NCBI GenBank assembly: GCA_043228905.1
Contig: JBHGNT010001122.1
Span: forward strand, 1-11,851
From: Azolla caroliniana
Taxonomy: Eukaryota; Plantae; Polypodiophyta
DNA length: 11,851 bases
Direction: 5' to 3'
In this document: in pieces, positions 2,500 to 11,851 of the stretch
Layout of the letters: each line of letters begins with the position of its first letter
Numbering within the stretch: the stretch's first letter is position 1
Program-made: the position numbers and the translations under genes
The notes under the pieces: generated by a model
Seen by the model: only the letters and a program-made list of their open reading frames with translations
The model's database searches: none
Told to the model about the DNA's origin: nothing

Positions 2500-3302
2500 T
2501 TGTATCGCAATAACCCTTTTATAAAAAAGAGACTTCGTTTCCCTAAATTCCTCGAGGCTTTCGCAAAGTTTTGGTTCTCTTTTTTTGAGTCATCATATAT
2601 CTTCTGAACGTAATCAAATCTACTAATCTAGTTTCACACAATCACAACTTAATTGTATTCTTGAAGAAAAAACAATAGATATCTTGTATGCTTTTTGTGT
2701 TTTAATTGCATTCATTGAATATCTTCTGTTTCCGCCACATTATTCAGCACAATGTTCATCTTTCCTTTGTGGGGTGTCTTCATCTTGTAACAATTAAAAG
2801 GAATGGGGAAATAAATCTGACAGAAAAATGTGACAGTATGGTTTCTTGAAAGGAAATCGATACCAATTGTGGTTGATTGCAATGACATACTATCAACGCA
2901 TTTGATGTGGCAACGATCATGTTTGGATATTGATACCAAACTCCAAACCAATGGATCAATGTGACCTCAAAATCCTAGAGAAAATGTATGATGTGTGCTT
3001 ATTTATGGCTCTTAAAAATTATCATTCCCCACAAGAATTGGATGTTGAATGACAAAGATATTTTTGGAGAGGAGTTGGATGTTAAGTTGATCTTTGGAAT
3101 AGATAGGTCAACATCAATTTGGATCGAAGGTCAACATCTATATCACATCAAAGGAGTGATGGTATGTCAAACAATCATACTATATACAATCTCCAATTCA
3201 TCTGATGGTGAATTGGGATTTTATTTGGGTTTAATGAATCAGAGCTAGCAAGAACAAACCACTTGTCAAAAGTGGGTATTGGTCAATGGTTGGAAGTCTC
3301 TT

Positions 3303-3824
3303 TGTCACACTCATGGCAATTTCGAAAAATGTCTCACCCTTTTGGCTCTCCCTTCTTTGTCTTTTGGGTTGTTGCCTCTTAGGAAACACGGGTCGTGGTC
3401 AGTCCTTCGACCCCAAGGTGGGTGTGGAACAACGAACCGAGCTTAATCGTATTACGTAAGGAGAGAACCTCTGTGACTTCGTTGTGTGTAAGGGGAGACG
3501 GCTACAACCGACTCCTTCTCACAGGTTGTGCTTACGTACTACTACGATTACGTATCCGAGACACATACACTAAATTAGTTGTAGCTATACACAGAAACTC
3601 AGAGAAGATAGTATTCTATTATCATGCATTCTTTTTACAATTCCCAGAATTTACACACCTCCTTACGAGGTTTTCTGCCCTTTATATATGCAGGGTCTAA
3701 TTAGCCGTTCACGCGTACCCGCGTGAACCGTTACATACGTTACGCTTTATATAGTTTTTTATTCCTACGCTTTTGGCTGTCGGTTACTATTCCGGCGGAC
3801 AACACCTGGCACGCCTGTGGGACA
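3303..3824 (-). repeat. Putative 3' LTR (~522 bp)
   Basis: TG...CA ends with a 7/8 terminal inverted repeat (TGTCACAC 3303-3310 / GTGGGACA 3817-3824); starts 27 nt after the last element ORF; minus-strand TATATAAA at 3681-3688 and 3746-3753. The second LTR is not in the window, so boundaries are inferred. Predicted TSD CTCTT (3298-3302). Confidence 0.72.
3681..3688 (-). promoter_or_regulatory. Candidate LTR TATA box (TATATAAA)
   Basis: + strand tttatata; element-sense orientation, about 140 nt inside the U3 end; a second copy is at 3746-3753. Confidence 0.55.
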
Positions 3825-3851
3825 GTGCCTTTGCACGTCGAACCCATCCCA

Positions 3852-6614
3852 TTACTCTTCTTCCAAAATGCCCCGGATGTTTGGCTCTGTTGTGGTGTCC
3901 TCGGCCGGAGTTGATGTAGGGCCCGTAGGAGCATCGTGGTGTGGCTCCTCTGCTTGGTCGGCCTGGTTTCTCCCGGAGTCGCCTTCGCCGTGTGCGGGTG
4001 GTCTGGGTACGGTGGGCTCTTCTTGAGTTCGTGGACTGGGCTCTGCCGGTAGTGTGCTTGCCATCGGCTGTTGCTCCGCCTCTATTGTTACGTCCTCCGC
4101 GGTGTTGGCCATTTTTGTGTGTGCCTGGGCGTGGGGCGGGGATTCCGCTTGGTCCGCACTATTTTCCGCGTTTTCTGAAGATGGTGTGGGTTGGACCTTT
4201 TGTTGGTTAATCGTTTCGCTGTCTGGTCTTGTGGGGAACTCCACTCGTTCGTCCCCGCTATTCTCCTTCATTGTCCTCGCTGGTGATCGGTCCTGAGGTT
4301 CCTCTTCTTCGGCTGGGCTCGGAATTGGTGTCTCGTTGGGTTCCTCGTTTGTATACGTGTTGCTGATTTGTGTGATCTAGTGAAATAGCTCCTCCTGACT
4401 TTCACCAAAATCATCTAGGAGTTGTGCGAGTTCTTCGGAGTGTTGGTCTACTAACGCGCGATAGTCTTGCGCTAGGTCCTCCCGTACGGTCGCAATGCTC
4501 TCCTCGTTTAGCTTATAAAACCCTCCGCCGTCTTTCCGCCGGTTCTCCCAGTCCGCACGATACGCGTGCAATTCCGCTGCTTGGGTTGCCCACGCCATCC
4601 ATCCTTTGTCCAACGCCGTTTTTACTTGCGCTGTGAACCTTTCCTGGTTGGTTTGGAGAAGGATGCGCACGTTATCCGTGATGGCCTGACATCGGTTGCG
4701 TGCGTCTTCCATCGACTTCTGGAGATTTGCGATTTCCTGCTGTTTAACGGTTGCCGCTTCCTCATACGTGGCCTTCAGGCCCGCCCACAGCTGGGATTCC
4801 TTTTCATGTTGTTTTTCTAATTTCCCCATTTCATTGTTTAGGCGGATTTCGAGTTGATGCCGTCTGTCTTGTTCGACTACCAACTGTTCATCAAACCATA
4901 CCTTCTTTTTCTCTAATAAGGCCCGAAGCCCCGCTATTGCCGCCTCTGATTTCTTCGCATCCTCTCGTAATTGGGCGTTGTCGTCTTTTGTCCGGATGTG
5001 ATGTGCCACCTCCGTAGCTAGTTTCTCTTCAAGCGTTTTTACGGCTTTTCGTCCGTTAGCCCGTATCTCCTTTTCTCTATCGGAGGATTGGCGTAGCTCT
5101 GCTCGAAGGCAGTCAATTTCGGATTCCGCTAGCTGCACGACCCTTTTTGCTTTTGAGGCGATGGCGGTCTGAGCCTCGATTTCTTCTTTGAGAGCATCGA
5201 TAACGTGGTTCGGTGGCGGGGTTTCGTGTTGCGCCGTAGTCGTATGAGCTTCTAACTCGGCGATGTGTGCGTTGGCCTTTTGTAGTTCGGCTTCGGTCAT
5301 TTTAACCTTCTTCCAGACATTCTTATTTTTTATGGCCATCTCCTTGGCGCTCGTGTTGACCTTTGCTAGTTCCCGATGGACTTCGACTAGGGCCGTGTTT
5401 AAGGGTGGTATTTCCATCCCTACTTGCCGTACCCCAACGTTCCTCTGTCTACCGACCCTGGCCAGCCGGTCCTCATCGTCGCTCTCCGTTGTTTGTGTTA
5501 GGGCGCGCTCTATCATCTGTCGTTCTGCATGCTCCTCGGCCATGCGTTGAGCGGTTTTGACCTGTTGTGTTGCTAAGAACTCCATGACCTCGAAAGAGGT
5601 TCCGAACTGCAAGAGGGAGTTGAATTCGTGGGCCGTATTCGGAATATCTGGATATGCCAAAACCTCGCTTTCCGCCGTCAATACAGCTTTCCCTCGCTGG
5701 GACTGAGTCGTAATAATCGGTCGCGGCTCCCGGATGATTTCGAAGGTGGTATTCGGCTCTGCTGTTGCGGGGCCTTCGCCTACGGTTGGTGCCTCCGGAT
5801 CTGTGGGGGCGTTTTTTACCAACCCCTGCCTATCCTTTCTATCCAATCTGCGTTGTTTGGGTCTAGGGCTTTCCCCACGTGCTTCGGTGGTTGGTTCTGG
5901 GGCTGCCTCCATGGGGTGTCTCGGTTGTTCCTCCTGTGTCGCCCGTATATCCAGTTGGTCGATAGGAGGTGTTGTCCTTGGGTTTGGTTGGGTCGGTTAG
6001 GGTTCCTCCTCCCATGTTGGGGCCGCTAACTCCGCTAACCTACGTTTCGCGAAGTGGGGCGGGGCCGTGGGTTGGCTGCTGGGCTGTGGTGTTGGTAGAC
6101 CTCGGGGTGGAAACAGTACCGTAAGGTATTGTTGGATGATTGGCCGGAGCTTTTTGCCTACTTGGTACGCATGCAAGCCTTCCCGTAACGTCGGCCCTGT
6201 GATGACCCCCCAGTCGACTGTACGCCCCTCAAAGGTGTCGATAATGATGCCCGCCTTCTGTTTAGGCATCCCGTAAGCATTGACATGGACGCAGCCTACT
6301 TCCAGTAGGAACTTGGCCACTTCACGGAAGAAGGGATCCGGAATCTGTTTTGTTCTATAGGCTTTGGCGGAGGATGAGTATGGGCCAAAATATCGTTGCA
6401 GCGCCTCTGTAGGAGGTATTTCGAAATGTCTTTCGCCTAGTGAAGATGGGTCTAACTTCTTCCGAATGGAAGAGTTTGTGACCGCGTCGATGTTAAGCCG
6501 CCTGGCGATATCCATGGCGTCCGGGTGCAGAGGTGCTTCTGCGACCCGAATATAACCATCCAGGCGCTTCTCCACGAGCCATCGGCGTAGGGCAGTAGAG
6601 ATGAAGATCGGCAT
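3852..6614 (-). pseudogene. Additional 3' ORF of the retrotransposon (env-position ORF), ~920 codons, two in-frame stops
   Basis: ORFs 5997-6614, 4377-5912 and 3852-4271 share one frame, joined by open stretches of 28 and 35 codons across single stops TAA (5997-5999) and TAG (4377-4379). N-terminal globular region, long E/K/A/Q heptad-like region (~5400-4400), acidic Pro/Thr-rich tail. Confidence 0.85.
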
Positions 6615-6954
6615 CGCCAGGGTAGGTTCGTGGGGAGGCGACGGGTAGCAATGGTGAGTTAGAGCTCTGAGATGTGATGGGGAAGAAGGTGAGGAGGAGC
6701 GATGGGCGCGCTAATAGCTAGACTCAGTGTTTCTGCTTTGTGCAGAAAACCTTCTATTTCCTTCTTTTTGTGGCTTAGGGTTCCTTGGGCGGTGAGCCAT
6801 CGTGGTGCCGCGTGTTCTTGAACTAGGAGTTTGTGCATGCCTTTAGTCGTTTTAATAGTCGCTATCTTCTCTTCTTCTTTTTCTTTTTTCTTTTTTTTTC
6901 TAACGGTTAGCTACCCCCTATTTTTACATTATAGTACAATTGGGCATGTCCCTT

Positions 6955-8150
6955 TTACGCTACGGGTTCTTCGGCTTTGTCTCGTTCGGCGGTGAATGGG
7001 TTAGGTGGTGTAGGGCCCAGGTAAGGTTTGAGCCGAAACCCATTCACTTTTTGCCGTACTATTTCTCTAGCCAGTGTTCCTAGTTGGAATGTGCCCTGTT
7101 CCGCTCCAATTATCCAGTATGGGCCGGTCCAGCGGAAACGTAGCTTACCCGGCATCTGGCCCATGCGTGTTTGAAAAACTAGCACCACTCGGCCCACGGC
7201 GAACTCCTTTTCCCTTGCGCTCCAATGCCGATTGATGAATGCTTTACGTCGTCGCTATTCTTTTTCCAACACAACCATGCTGTGGACGCATTTCTCCCCT
7301 AGTTTGAGGAGTTGGTAGAGTCGTTCCTCCTCTGACTTGGCTTCTGATAATCGGTTCCGTACCTGAATGCGCAAACTAGGTACCCGGAATTCGACCGGCA
7401 TTACTGCTTCTAGTCCAAACGCTAGCCGGAACGGTGTTGACCGTATGCTTGTTTTGTAACTCGTTTTGTACGCCCATAACGCGCTCTGGAGTTTGGTATC
7501 CTAGTCCGTTTTGTTTTCATTGACGGTTTTCTTTAAAATGTTCTGTAAAGTTTTGTTCGTGGATTCCGCTAATCCATTCGCTTGCGGGTAGTATGGCGTG
7601 CTTTTCTTGTGGACAACTGCGTAATGATGTGTTAGTTCCCGAACCACCGTATTGAGGAAGTGGCTCCCCTGGTCACTGATGAGCTCAATCGGGCAGCCGA
7701 ATCGGCACCAGATGTGCTCGTACAGAAATTTGGCTGTGACGGTCGCCATATTTTCCCGTAGTGCCTTTGCTTCTACCCATTTGGTACAGTAGTCCGTGGC
7801 TACCAATATGTATTTGTGTACAGGCTGCTGCTGGTGTGAAGGGCCCCACAAAATCCAATCCCCACTTTTGGAAGGGGTCCAGTGGTAGCACAGGTTGGTG
7901 TGGCATCCTTGCGTCCTCCGCGGGCTACCCCATCCGCTGGCACAAATCACACTTTCTACAATACTCAGATGTGTCCTGTGTTGTTGGCCACCATCAGCCC
8001 GCCTGCCATACTTTGCGGGCTGTCACGTTGCCTGCGTAATGGCCGTCGGCCATGCCGCAGTGTGCCTCCTGTAACACTGCTTCTTTTTCATCCTGACGGA
8101 CTCCCCGTCACCAAATGCCGTCACTTCCTTTGTGATATAAATACCCTTCG
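6955..8150 (-). pseudogene. Integrase domain of pol (disrupted)
   Basis: HHCC (EAHCGMADGHY...CDLCQR); DDE core KWGLDFVGP / ISDQGSHF / YYPQANGLAESTN; C-terminal GPY/F module RWTGPYWI. Stops at 8108, 7994, 7925, 7501 and 7255; frameshift near 7816. Domain start approximate. Confidence 0.95.
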
Positions 8151-8399
8151 ACTAGGCAGAAGTGACGGCTTCGGACGGCTAGTCGTTTCTTCTCGTCTGT
8201 GCGTAATTGTGGTGGAGGTAGTCTTGTAGTCAAAAAGTACGTCATTTCCATAAGCCATCGATCCGGAAAGGTGGATTCCGTTTTTTCTGCAATCGTCGCT
8301 ACTCGCCAGATGTCGGCGTTCAGAAAATCGTCGTCGTCTTTCTGTACTGTTTCTCCACTCTCAAGTCTGCTCAAAAAATCCGCCACTGCGTGTTGCGTC

Positions 8400-8730
8400 C
8401 CTGGCCGGTGCTGAATTACGAACTCGAATTCTTGGAGCAACAGCATTCACCACGCCAATTTCCCTGTCAGGGCTTGTTTCTCTACCAAATACAATAATGC
8501 CGAATGATCCACATGGAACGTGAATTTCCGTCCTGGTAAATAATGTCGGAATTTATTGATGCTATAGATTATCCCTAGCACCTCCCGCTCTGTTGTGGAA
8601 TAGTTACGCTCTGCTGCTGATAATTTACAACTTGCGTAGTATATTGGCATGTACCAGTTTGGTTTGGTGAGTTGCATTAGCGCGCTTCCTATTGTTGTGT
8701 TCGAGGCGTCGACGAACATGTGAAATGGTT
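8400..8730 (-). pseudogene. Ty3/Gypsy RNase H domain of pol (disrupted)
   Basis: FVDASNTTIGSAL, ERNYSTTEREVLGIIYSINKFRHYL, FHVDHSALLYL, KLAW*MLLLQEF (stop at 8447-8449). Boundaries approximate. Confidence 0.95.
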
Positions 8731-8989
8731 TCGCCCAAACTGGAGGTTGTACTATGGGGGCCTGTGTAAGCATTATCTTCAGTGCCTCATATGCCTTATC
8801 CTCTGTTGCAGTCCATTGAAAAGGAGTCTGATGTACGGCAGCGTGTAGTGGCGTGGCGAAGTCCGCCAAATACCGTATCATCTGACTATGCCACCGTATT
8901 TGGCCCAAAACCGGCTAAGTGCTTTGGCATTTGTCGGAGTTTTAGCTTGCATAATAGCGGAGATCTTGTTTGGGTCGACTGTTATTCCT

Positions 8990-9620
8990 TCCTTGCTGAC
9001 TATGTGGCCTAGGAGAGCCCCGCTGGTCACGCTGAATGCACATTTCGCGGGATTCAGGCTTAAGCGTGCAGTGCGGCAACGTTCCAGGCAAAGACGTAAG
9101 TGCGAGAAATGGTCTTTTGTTCGCCCATATACCGCAAAATTGTCTAAAAAGACTTGCATGAACGTCGGAATGTATTCCCCAAAGATCTCCGTAATCGTTC
9201 ATTGGAATGTTGCCGGTGTTGTCTTTAGGCCAAACATCATGACGACCGCCACATATACTCCCCAGTCCGTGACAAATGTCGTCTTCTCTTGGTCGTCGGG
9301 ATGCATGCGCACTTGGTTATAGCCACTGAAGCCATCTAAGAAACTGTACATCTCATGGCCTGCGACGGCGTCCAGCACACTATCAGTGAAGGGTAAGGGA
9401 AATGCGTTTGTAATGGTTACGGCGTTTGATTTTCGGTAATCCACGCATACCCGTATTTTGTCGTTTTTCTTTGGGACAACCACTATCGGGCTAAGCCATG
9501 TCGCTTGTTTTACTGGTCGTATGAACCCAGCCCTCAGCAGCTTGTCAATTTCTTCTTTCACGCAGGTCGCGTAATTGGGGTTCATGCGGTAGCGACGTTG
9601 TTGGACAGGTTTCGCGTTTG
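8990..9620 (-). pseudogene. Reverse transcriptase domain of pol (disrupted)
   Basis: WLSPIVVVPKK..IRVCVDYR, FPLP, FLDGFSGYNQV, MFGLK..PATFQ* (stop at 9199-9201), catalytic motif VFLDN (expected DD; AAT at 9139-9141), LLGHIVS; 1-nt deletion just downstream at 8907-8910. Boundaries approximate. Confidence 0.96.
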
Positions 9621-10149
9621 TTGCTAAATTGATCTTATGCTGATAGAACTTGGGATCTAACCCCTTCATGTCCTCATGAGCCCACGCGAACACATCTTTA
9701 TATTCTATGAGTAGTGCGATCATTGTGGTTCTCTGGTCCGGCCTCAATTCCTTTGCTATGGAGAGGAATCGGGGTTCCGATCCCGTACCCACGTTCACTT
9801 CGTCGAGAGCGGAAGCGGTGACCCATCGTGAAATCTCCATTTCCCTTTCGAAGGCCACCCATGCTTTGCTGAGTTCCAATATGGACTCTGGCTTTGGTTC
9901 GTACGGCTCTTCGCTTGGAACAATGGTCGTAGTATATTTTGCCGCAGTTGCGATGACATCTATCTCGAACAGCGGAATAATTCAAGGATGTTCGTCAAGG
10001 TACGCTTCCAATTCGGCATCCTCCACCCCAGCCAGCATATTGATGTCTTCCGCATATAACGGTGTTATCCCCTTAGGTTGGGGCGTGTTGCCTTCCGTAG
10101 GCACACGAACCTTGATGCATTCCTACCGGAAACTGATACACTCGTGTTG

Positions 10150-10460
10150 CCAGCTCTGCTTGATATTTGCTGTTCGAAGCCACAGTTTGCCCAGAAGCAC
10201 TGGGTACGCTCCAGGCGCGTACAAAGCGAGGACAACCGCCGATATGTTGAAGCGGTGTCCGCCCACGATGATGCCTATTTTGCGAATTAGCCCCAACGGC
10301 CGCACTGATCGGGTATCTGCCATGCGAAGCTAGAATGGACACGCCTCCCATTCGAAAATGCCCAGTTGTTCGCAAGTTTTCGCGCTAATCACATTGACGC
10401 CTGAGCCGCCGTCGATTACACATCCAGGGACTTTCTGTCCGTGCAATATTACTGTAATGG
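10150..10460 (-). pseudogene. Aspartic protease (retropepsin) domain (disrupted)
   Basis: VIDGGSGVNVIS (DGG at 10405-10413), LRMAD..VRPLG flap region, YPVLLGKLWL; stop at 10330-10332. Confidence 0.93.
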
Positions 10461-10859
10461 CCGGGTTGTGTTGATCTACCACTGGTGGTCCCTCGCTGAC
10501 GTCAGTCAGGTTTGTGGCAACGCTTGACCCGGTCATGCCCGCCACCTGTGCTTCCATGGTCTGGCGGAAACGTGGAACTAGTTGTAGCAGTTTTTCTATA
10601 GTTAGCGTGATTTCACAGCCCGTTAACACCTGCCAAATGGGGTTCGGCCCCGTTTTTTCGTTCTCTGTTTGCTTCATTGCATTCACGGACTCCTGCCTCA
10701 TACGTTCCGTATTGGCCGCGTTTGCTTTTTCCACCCAGGCTTGGGCTTGTCGGCGTACCTCGTCCTGCGCAGCCCAATCCACCGTTTTCGTTTGTTGGCG
10801 TGTGGTGACTTGTTGCACCTCCGTCGTAATCGTGTTGACGGTGGGCCCCTTTCCCTTGC

Positions 10860-11851
10860 GTGTTGGGCATTGTGTGGCATAATGTCCGGGTTGCTGACAA
10901 ATAAAACAGTGGATGCTTGATTCTCCCTTCTCAGCCCCAGGTGGAGTGTGCCGTTCTCCGGGCGCTACTTGCTCTTCGAGGTCCGGCCTCGTTTGTCGAG
11001 ACGTACGCGGTGGCTGCTGTTGATCCCGTTGTTGTTCCTGGTGTCGCTCATCCCCCGAGCTTTCGTCGTAACGCCGGTGATCCCTATATTGTCGAGGCTT
11101 ACCTCGATAGCCATTGAAGCCGCCCCGTTTGTTCATCGGGCGTTGATGTTTGTATCGCCGGCCTCCTTTGGCGTAACTCGGATGTCCACGATAATCCTCG
11201 TCCTCCGGGTCCTCCTCCTCGGACTCGTTGTGATTTCGGCGATTCCGGTTCTACCTGTCCTCCCGCGGGTTGCGATCCCTATACCGAGGCCGGTCTTCTT
11301 GCCTCTTTTGTTCCACCCGATGTGGTTGCCGTTGTGTCCATGCTGCAGACCGCGGGCGTGGCTCTATTTAACATATTGTACTCGCATTGGTCAACTGTGT
11401 GAACCTTCGAGTGGCAGATTGGGCAATGGATTCGCATATTGCACTCCACCGCGGAATGCCCCGAGTTCAAGCAAATCGTACACTGGATTGCTTGACGAAA
11501 TTGGCGTTCCTCATCTTGAGGTAACGCTTGTCGTAAGGATGACATCGAAAACCTCTCCTCCTCGTCATCCAACTCGAGTTGTAACGCTCGTTCAATCACC
11601 ATATTTGTTGTTTCCCCTTTCACACTATTGTTGTTGAGTGTTGCCTTGATGGGCCGGTGTAACGCTGCCAGAAATGTTTCCCGTGCCTCCTCCTCCGCAG
11701 GGCTTCGATCTAGTTTCCGTCATAAATTTTGGAACCGTAAGCGGAAGTCTGCTATTGTCTCGGTCGGTAGTTGCTTAATTGTATAAAACTGCCCGAGAAT
11801 CTCGCATTGTGGAACCCTCCGGTGAAAAAAACGCAAGAAGGCGGACTGGAG
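10860..11851 (-). pseudogene. gag (partial, disrupted): capsid C-terminal region plus three CCHC zinc knuckles
   Basis: Manual translation from 11851 gives LQSAFLRFF...KQLPTETIADFRLRFQNL* (retrotransposon gag Q-x3-E-x4-F-x2-RF motif); knuckles at 11441-11482, 11384-11425 and 10867-10908; stops at 11720-11722 and 11251-11253; frameshift about 11290-11360. Confidence 0.92.

Follow-up and report, generated by a model that had tools for sequence, protein, structure and literature searches.

What is encoded between the integrase and the 3' long terminal repeat (LTR) of the Ty3/gypsy element on the minus strand of contig JBHGNT010001122.1, an 11,851-nucleotide stretch of plant-like DNA analyzed here as the window, and what might the product do for the element? 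Three minus-strand open reading frames (ORFs) listed separately at 5997-6710, 4377-5996, and 3852-4376 abut in one frame, and the original prediction that they are a single frame broken by a TAA and a TAG holds: 6614..3855 comprises 920 codons from a Met at 6614, with two internal stops. The core coding region of this extra gene (3852..6614) opens with the conserved Met that begins the domain and closes with the terminal stop. The suggestion that each stop arose from a Gln codon by a C-to-T change carries no evidential weight, since the same could be said of every TAA or TAG codon. The frame ends 47 nucleotides before the LTR, rather than the 27 first proposed, because the LTR begins at 3804, as indicated by its terminal repeat, by the junctions of relatives (identical in 20), and by locus L078, which has the same start in both of its LTRs.

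The TAA (5997..5999) and the TAG (4377..4379) are private to the window copy. Sister copies do not share them (0 of 67 covering loci at the first position and 0 of 22 at the second), and within the first stop 99 to 100% of the read depth differs from the window copy in all four sequencing runs. Of 7,994 candidates scored in a protein search, 8 proved to be relatives, and several of these are unbroken proteins of 800 to 1,075 residues that start and end as the window gene does. A metagenome scan for the extra gene kept 80 of 154 loci, 11 of which have an uninterrupted frame of 803 to 1,075 codons ending in a shared hydrophobic-acidic motif, the others being cut by contig ends or broken elsewhere; the N-terminal domain (N-domain) alone matches 233 cluster representatives. 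Because relatives encode the same protein without stops, the extra gene is not a chance frame. The two stops in the window copy (three with the one described below) might suggest three independent genes or a frame open by chance, a view to which we give practically no weight: the stop-free sister loci and the read depth at the first stop refute it, and the aligned part of the window copy's gag-pol has 11 stops and frame changes as well. The extra gene is one gene, in sense orientation between integrase and 3' LTR, and is dead in the window copy.

The extra gene is inherited with the integrase and is under strong purifying selection. By the Nei-Gojobori method, the ratio of nonsynonymous to synonymous substitution rates (dN/dS) is 0.12 to 0.34 for the whole frame and 0.00 to 0.11 for the N-domain in 15 within-subfamily pairs, which share ancestry and include some contigs that are collapsed repeats; these values are far below 1, and the reverse transcriptase (RT) gives 0.03 to 0.04 in the only 3 of 15 pairs free of saturation. 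Among sister copies over 5960-6260 (39 of the listed rows, stop position left out), third codon positions hold 22 of 30 polymorphic differences. In the N-domain, 15 of 19 sister differences leave the amino acid unchanged, where transitions would be expected to do so in 35% of cases (p 1e-4). Differences private to the window copy are mostly nonsynonymous (6 of 9). In 28 of the 37 loci with sufficient sequence, the integrase is found upstream of the gene in the same orientation. Distances in the N-domain correlate with those in the integrase at 0.90 (18 rows), and the main groups match in both trees. The nine remaining loci (L011, L012, L016, L019, L035, L054, L067, L068, and L073) have at least 900 nucleotides upstream without a pol match, three of them with an LTR-start-like motif there, and may represent deletion derivatives in which the extra gene survives, nested insertions, or assembly joins.

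A layout of globular N-domain, Pro-rich linker, heptad-like helix, and acidic tail had been read from the window copy, and both the structural model and the composition agree with it, although the reading was incomplete in that it missed conserved blocks at residues about 311-430 and 641-745 and a C-terminal motif. The folded N-domain (residues 1-170; 6105..6614) is modeled as a helical domain with a short hairpin at a pLDDT of about 95, predicted to be VANC21/DUF1985/PMD-like, and has a net charge of +7 with 11 conserved Lys/Arg positions. The linker that follows (19% Pro) contains a basic motif resembling a nuclear localization signal (NLS) at residues 252-260 (5835..5861), the pattern of which occurs in 10 of 10 relatives and as a variant in the window copy; it is a candidate NLS. 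The linker of L078 carries three tandem 16-residue basic units (8764-8907) and those of L024 and L014 carry Ser-Pro-Thr-Pro-rich tandem units, all of which recall the tandem peptide motifs that VANC proteins are reported to have in their variable regions. The middle block (5325..5684) lacks its second half in one subfamily (P0002, P0003, L002, L005, L008, and L009), where about 70 residues are gone while the frame and both domains are kept. A long charged, proline-poor, heptad-like region at residues about 405-658 (4641..5402) is a predicted coiled coil; this and residues about 722-756 are the proline-free heptad-like stretches by a crude heptad score, and the long region is helical in the model. 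The conserved C-terminal helical hairpin (residues 641-745; 4380..4694) has a family-specific motif matched by 52 of 59 candidates. The acidic tail, with a net charge of -26, varies among relatives, and the extreme C terminus (3855..3887) is a short hydrophobic-acidic motif present in all full-length relatives listed and kept in the distant P0075, which is 36% identical in the N-domain. This terminal motif looks like a partner-binding or activation motif.

The proposed extent of the gene was right for the core but not for the start of the frame, which continues upstream through a third stop (6711-6713) to an ATG at 6800. The probable N-terminal extension (6615..6800; 62 codons) is rich in Ser, His, Pro, and Arg. 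In 40 of 44 hand-picked relatives this leader is open, with an in-frame Met 65 to 140 codons before the domain, the position of the third stop is a stop in 1, sense in 49, and a gap in 4 of 54 loci, and the ratio of nonsynonymous to synonymous differences (pN/pS) in the extension is 0.30 to 0.76 (13 pairs). Conservation is also good at the Met at 6614, so either or both starts may be used. The leader varies among relatives by indels and tandem changes, and the gene may have its own promoter, as an AT-rich, TATA-like stretch precedes the leader in the spacer.

To which family does this protein belong? A resemblance to Transposase_32 had been proposed, but PF20167 is not matched, and neither are PF10536 (PMD) and PF09331 (DUF1985), in the window ORFs, 9 full-length rows, and 150 domain rows (for the domain rows, the best 25 of 47 families listed, the remainder being weaker than E 0.12). 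Foldseek, Pfam, and PDB sequence searches gave no match, and in the searches run no characterized family matched the extra-gene protein by sequence, in keeping with the expectation of an uncharacterized family. VANC21 (PDB 9lnk) was the sole candidate for a whole-domain structural match, with a modest Z and 9% identity, and the Atlas leads point to the DUF1985/PMD group. We consider it likely from these model comparisons that the N-domain is related in fold to VANC21/DUF1985/PMD, and the extra-gene family is probably one of VANC/PMD fold that is invisible to Pfam and in sense orientation. No published description of the gene was found in the literature searched, whose coverage of key papers was incomplete.

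VANC21 and VANC are described as anti-silencing proteins of VANDAL (MuDR) DNA transposons (PDB 9lnk; PMC5735166; PMC10398659), whereas the element here is an LTR retrotransposon. The N-domain is also more compact (170 residues versus about 236 spanned), has no DUF1985 or DUF287 match listed here, and is joined to a much longer helical rod, and no tandem motif arrays were found in the element. A VANC-like fold is likewise reported for the PMD proteins MAIN, MAIL1, and MAIL2, which are reported to act at promoter motifs against Polycomb (PMC5418596; 10.1101/2024.09.27.615353), but these are host genes and the link to them is indirect, through VANC21 and the Atlas leads; the searches made turned up no solved structure of any of the three.

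We tentatively favor, at a little short of an even chance, the reading that the extra-gene protein is a nuclear DNA-binding factor that would keep the chromatin of its own element active against host silencing; given the fold, a counter-silencing or activating role seems somewhat probable. The route rests on analogy with VANC21, which is reported to bind a 9-base motif in its element's noncoding DNA and to remove methylation, and with MAIL1/MAIN, reported to shield genes from Polycomb through promoter motifs. The protein would enter the nucleus by way of the NLS-like motif, the basic N-domain would bind the element's own DNA, the coiled coil could mediate self-association, and the hairpin or terminal motif might recruit a host factor, the outcome being an LTR promoter kept active. 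A search for the predicted target arrays found none (p<0.05 in 2 of 42 tests on LTRs and in 0 of 15 on spacers), and such tandem repeats as were seen in the element are of low complexity. In most LTRs, short motifs chosen post hoc occur in 2 to 4 copies ahead of the TATA box, with one motif in the closer subfamilies and a different one in the most distant subfamily; ordinary host enhancers would look no different.

The original prediction had offered a soluble factor acting in chromatin or anti-silencing, as a particle scaffold, or in cell-to-cell movement, and of these the first fits best while the other two gained no positive support. Solubility itself is supported: the highest 19-residue Kyte-Doolittle mean in the window protein is 0.92, as expected of a protein without a hydrophobic membrane-spanning stretch, and none of 11 proteins has a transmembrane segment by hydropathy or any segment above 1.31. 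This largely rules out an env-like membrane protein, which position and orientation would otherwise suit and which we rate as highly improbable. An integration or nuclear-import adaptor, in which the N-domain binds chromatin or DNA while coil and hairpin hold the integrase complex in place of an absent chromodomain, would be served equally by the predicted fold, basic motif, and helical rod. The two intact polyproteins (L024 and L078) have no chromodomain after integrase at E 0.01, the gene travels with the integrase, its strong conservation would suit a fixed partner, and a nuclear-transport role has been proposed for extra ORFs (PMC7264820); known carriers of the fold, however, act on transcription and silencing, and we regard the adaptor as unlikely. 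Slightly less likely still is a fortuitous fold match in a protein that works in the cytoplasm as a scaffold, either for particles or for the cell-to-cell movement of RNA or particles. The modest Z, the empty Foldseek, Pfam, and PDB sequence searches, the long helix or disorder that makes up about half of the protein, and the sense orientation at the env position are compatible with such a scaffold, but the only candidate match over the whole domain is to an accessory protein of a plant transposon, the Atlas leads indicate the same domain group, the NLS-like motif is conserved, and a search of BFVD, a weak test, turned up neither viral movement proteins nor capsid proteins.

A further alternative draws on the DNA that follows the gene. 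At the place expected for a polypurine tract lies a tRNA-3'-end-like segment with an inner hairpin (3807..3846, minus strand), which is the reverse complement of the family's primer-binding site and ends in CCA two bases before the LTR. It is shared by the window, L002, L010, L073, L078, and 16 more loci, and at these 21 junctions there is no polypurine tract in the 40 nucleotides before the LTR (purine fraction of the last 15 nucleotides, 0.53 to 0.60). In the hairpin 90.5% of cells are paired and 2 of 11 pairs are changed on both sides, with a folding energy that is not unusual. The arrangement suggests tRNA-type priming of the second strand, and the extra-gene protein could be a nucleic acid-binding helper for it: the segment replaces the tract at every pattern-found junction, starts a few to about 50 bases from the stop codon, and is conserved across subfamilies, as is the gene. 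But the link is one of adjacency alone, the search pattern finds only segment-bearing junctions, and VANC21 binds double-stranded DNA, and we judge this helper role improbable.

Returning to the favored anti-silencing reading, how does the element compare with known carriers of extra genes? PMD-A (PF10536), Transposase_28, and Athila ORF-1 are described in extra ORFs of Ogre/Tat, Retand, and Athila elements, and Transposase_32 in a sunflower Athila (PMC6317226, PMC5418596, and PMC11728184). Like those elements, ours is a nonchromovirus Ty3/gypsy element that carries a large extra ORF after pol and ahead of the 3' LTR; PMD is among the Atlas leads, and an NLS-like motif is also reported for sunflower Athila 14. 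The 3' ORFs of Ogre and Retand are reported to be mostly antisense (60% and 86%), whereas the window gene is sense, has no Pfam match, and has its own middle and C-terminal blocks. The second, archaeal-type RNase H of the Tat clade (TatI-III, Ogre, and Retand) is absent from L024 and L078, which have a single RNase H, and the primer site of 10 loci differs from the Athila tRNA-Asp/Asn site quoted in 10.64898/2026.03.20.713144. Phygy and Selgy are also nonchromoviruses without a second RNase H, but the published listing (PMC6317226) gives them tRNA-Trp or tRNA-Ala primer sites and no extra ORF. On the features tested (chromodomain, second RNase H, primer site, and extra ORF), the element fits no listed lineage. 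A protein of ATLANTYS that is described as resembling ASY2 (PMC13547354) likewise joins a globular domain to a long helix and is an accessory protein of a Ty3/gypsy element.

The function of extra ORFs in plant LTR retrotransposons is called an open question in PMC7264820 and PMC12844716, anti-silencing by them has already been raised as a question, and the origin of PMD between Gypsy elements and host genes is termed "fully open" in PMC5418596; the proven self-encoded anti-silencing system sits in DNA transposons. ORFs at the env position without any Pfam match can hide a VANC/PMD-like predicted fold, and in this family the domain is small, well folded, and strongly conserved, many intact natural variants exist, and the LTRs are short, which would make a binding site easy to map, so that the question is directly testable. 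The full proposition, a compact, early, sequence-specific anti-silencing factor of VANC/PMD fold on an unclassified Ty3/gypsy lineage without a polypurine tract, is a speculative one that we hold to be rather doubtful. Were it true and the host a seed-free plant, the fold would have been on retrotransposons before the PMD genes of angiosperms and the VANC of eudicots, which would probably derive from it.

Within the window, the element runs from 3370 to the right end. A gag zinc knuckle, RT, RNase H, and integrase follow in that order within a decayed gag-pol (gag, protease, RT, RNase H, and integrase; 6955..11851, minus strand) whose 5' end lies outside the window, and the order gag-protease-RT-RNase H-integrase within LTRs is that of a Ty3/gypsy LTR retrotransposon. 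The 3' LTR (3370..3804, minus strand) is 435 bp long with a 5-bp terminal inverted repeat. The family is multicopy, with 10,308 contig pieces from one run aligning to 3200-7300. In agreement with the outer LTR edge, a 1,180-nucleotide contig of run X5 (organism B) aligns over 3200-3369 and ceases to match there, resembling an empty insertion site, and run X1 has a contig spanning the 3369/3370 junction. A host TLC-domain (TRAM/LAG1/CLN8) gene at about 310-2499 on the plus strand ends about 870 nucleotides from the LTR and has a 54-nucleotide unit repeated four times at an exon end (1891-2131). In L056, a host cluster of four tRNA-Lys(CTT) genes (276-1240) adjoins an element copy.
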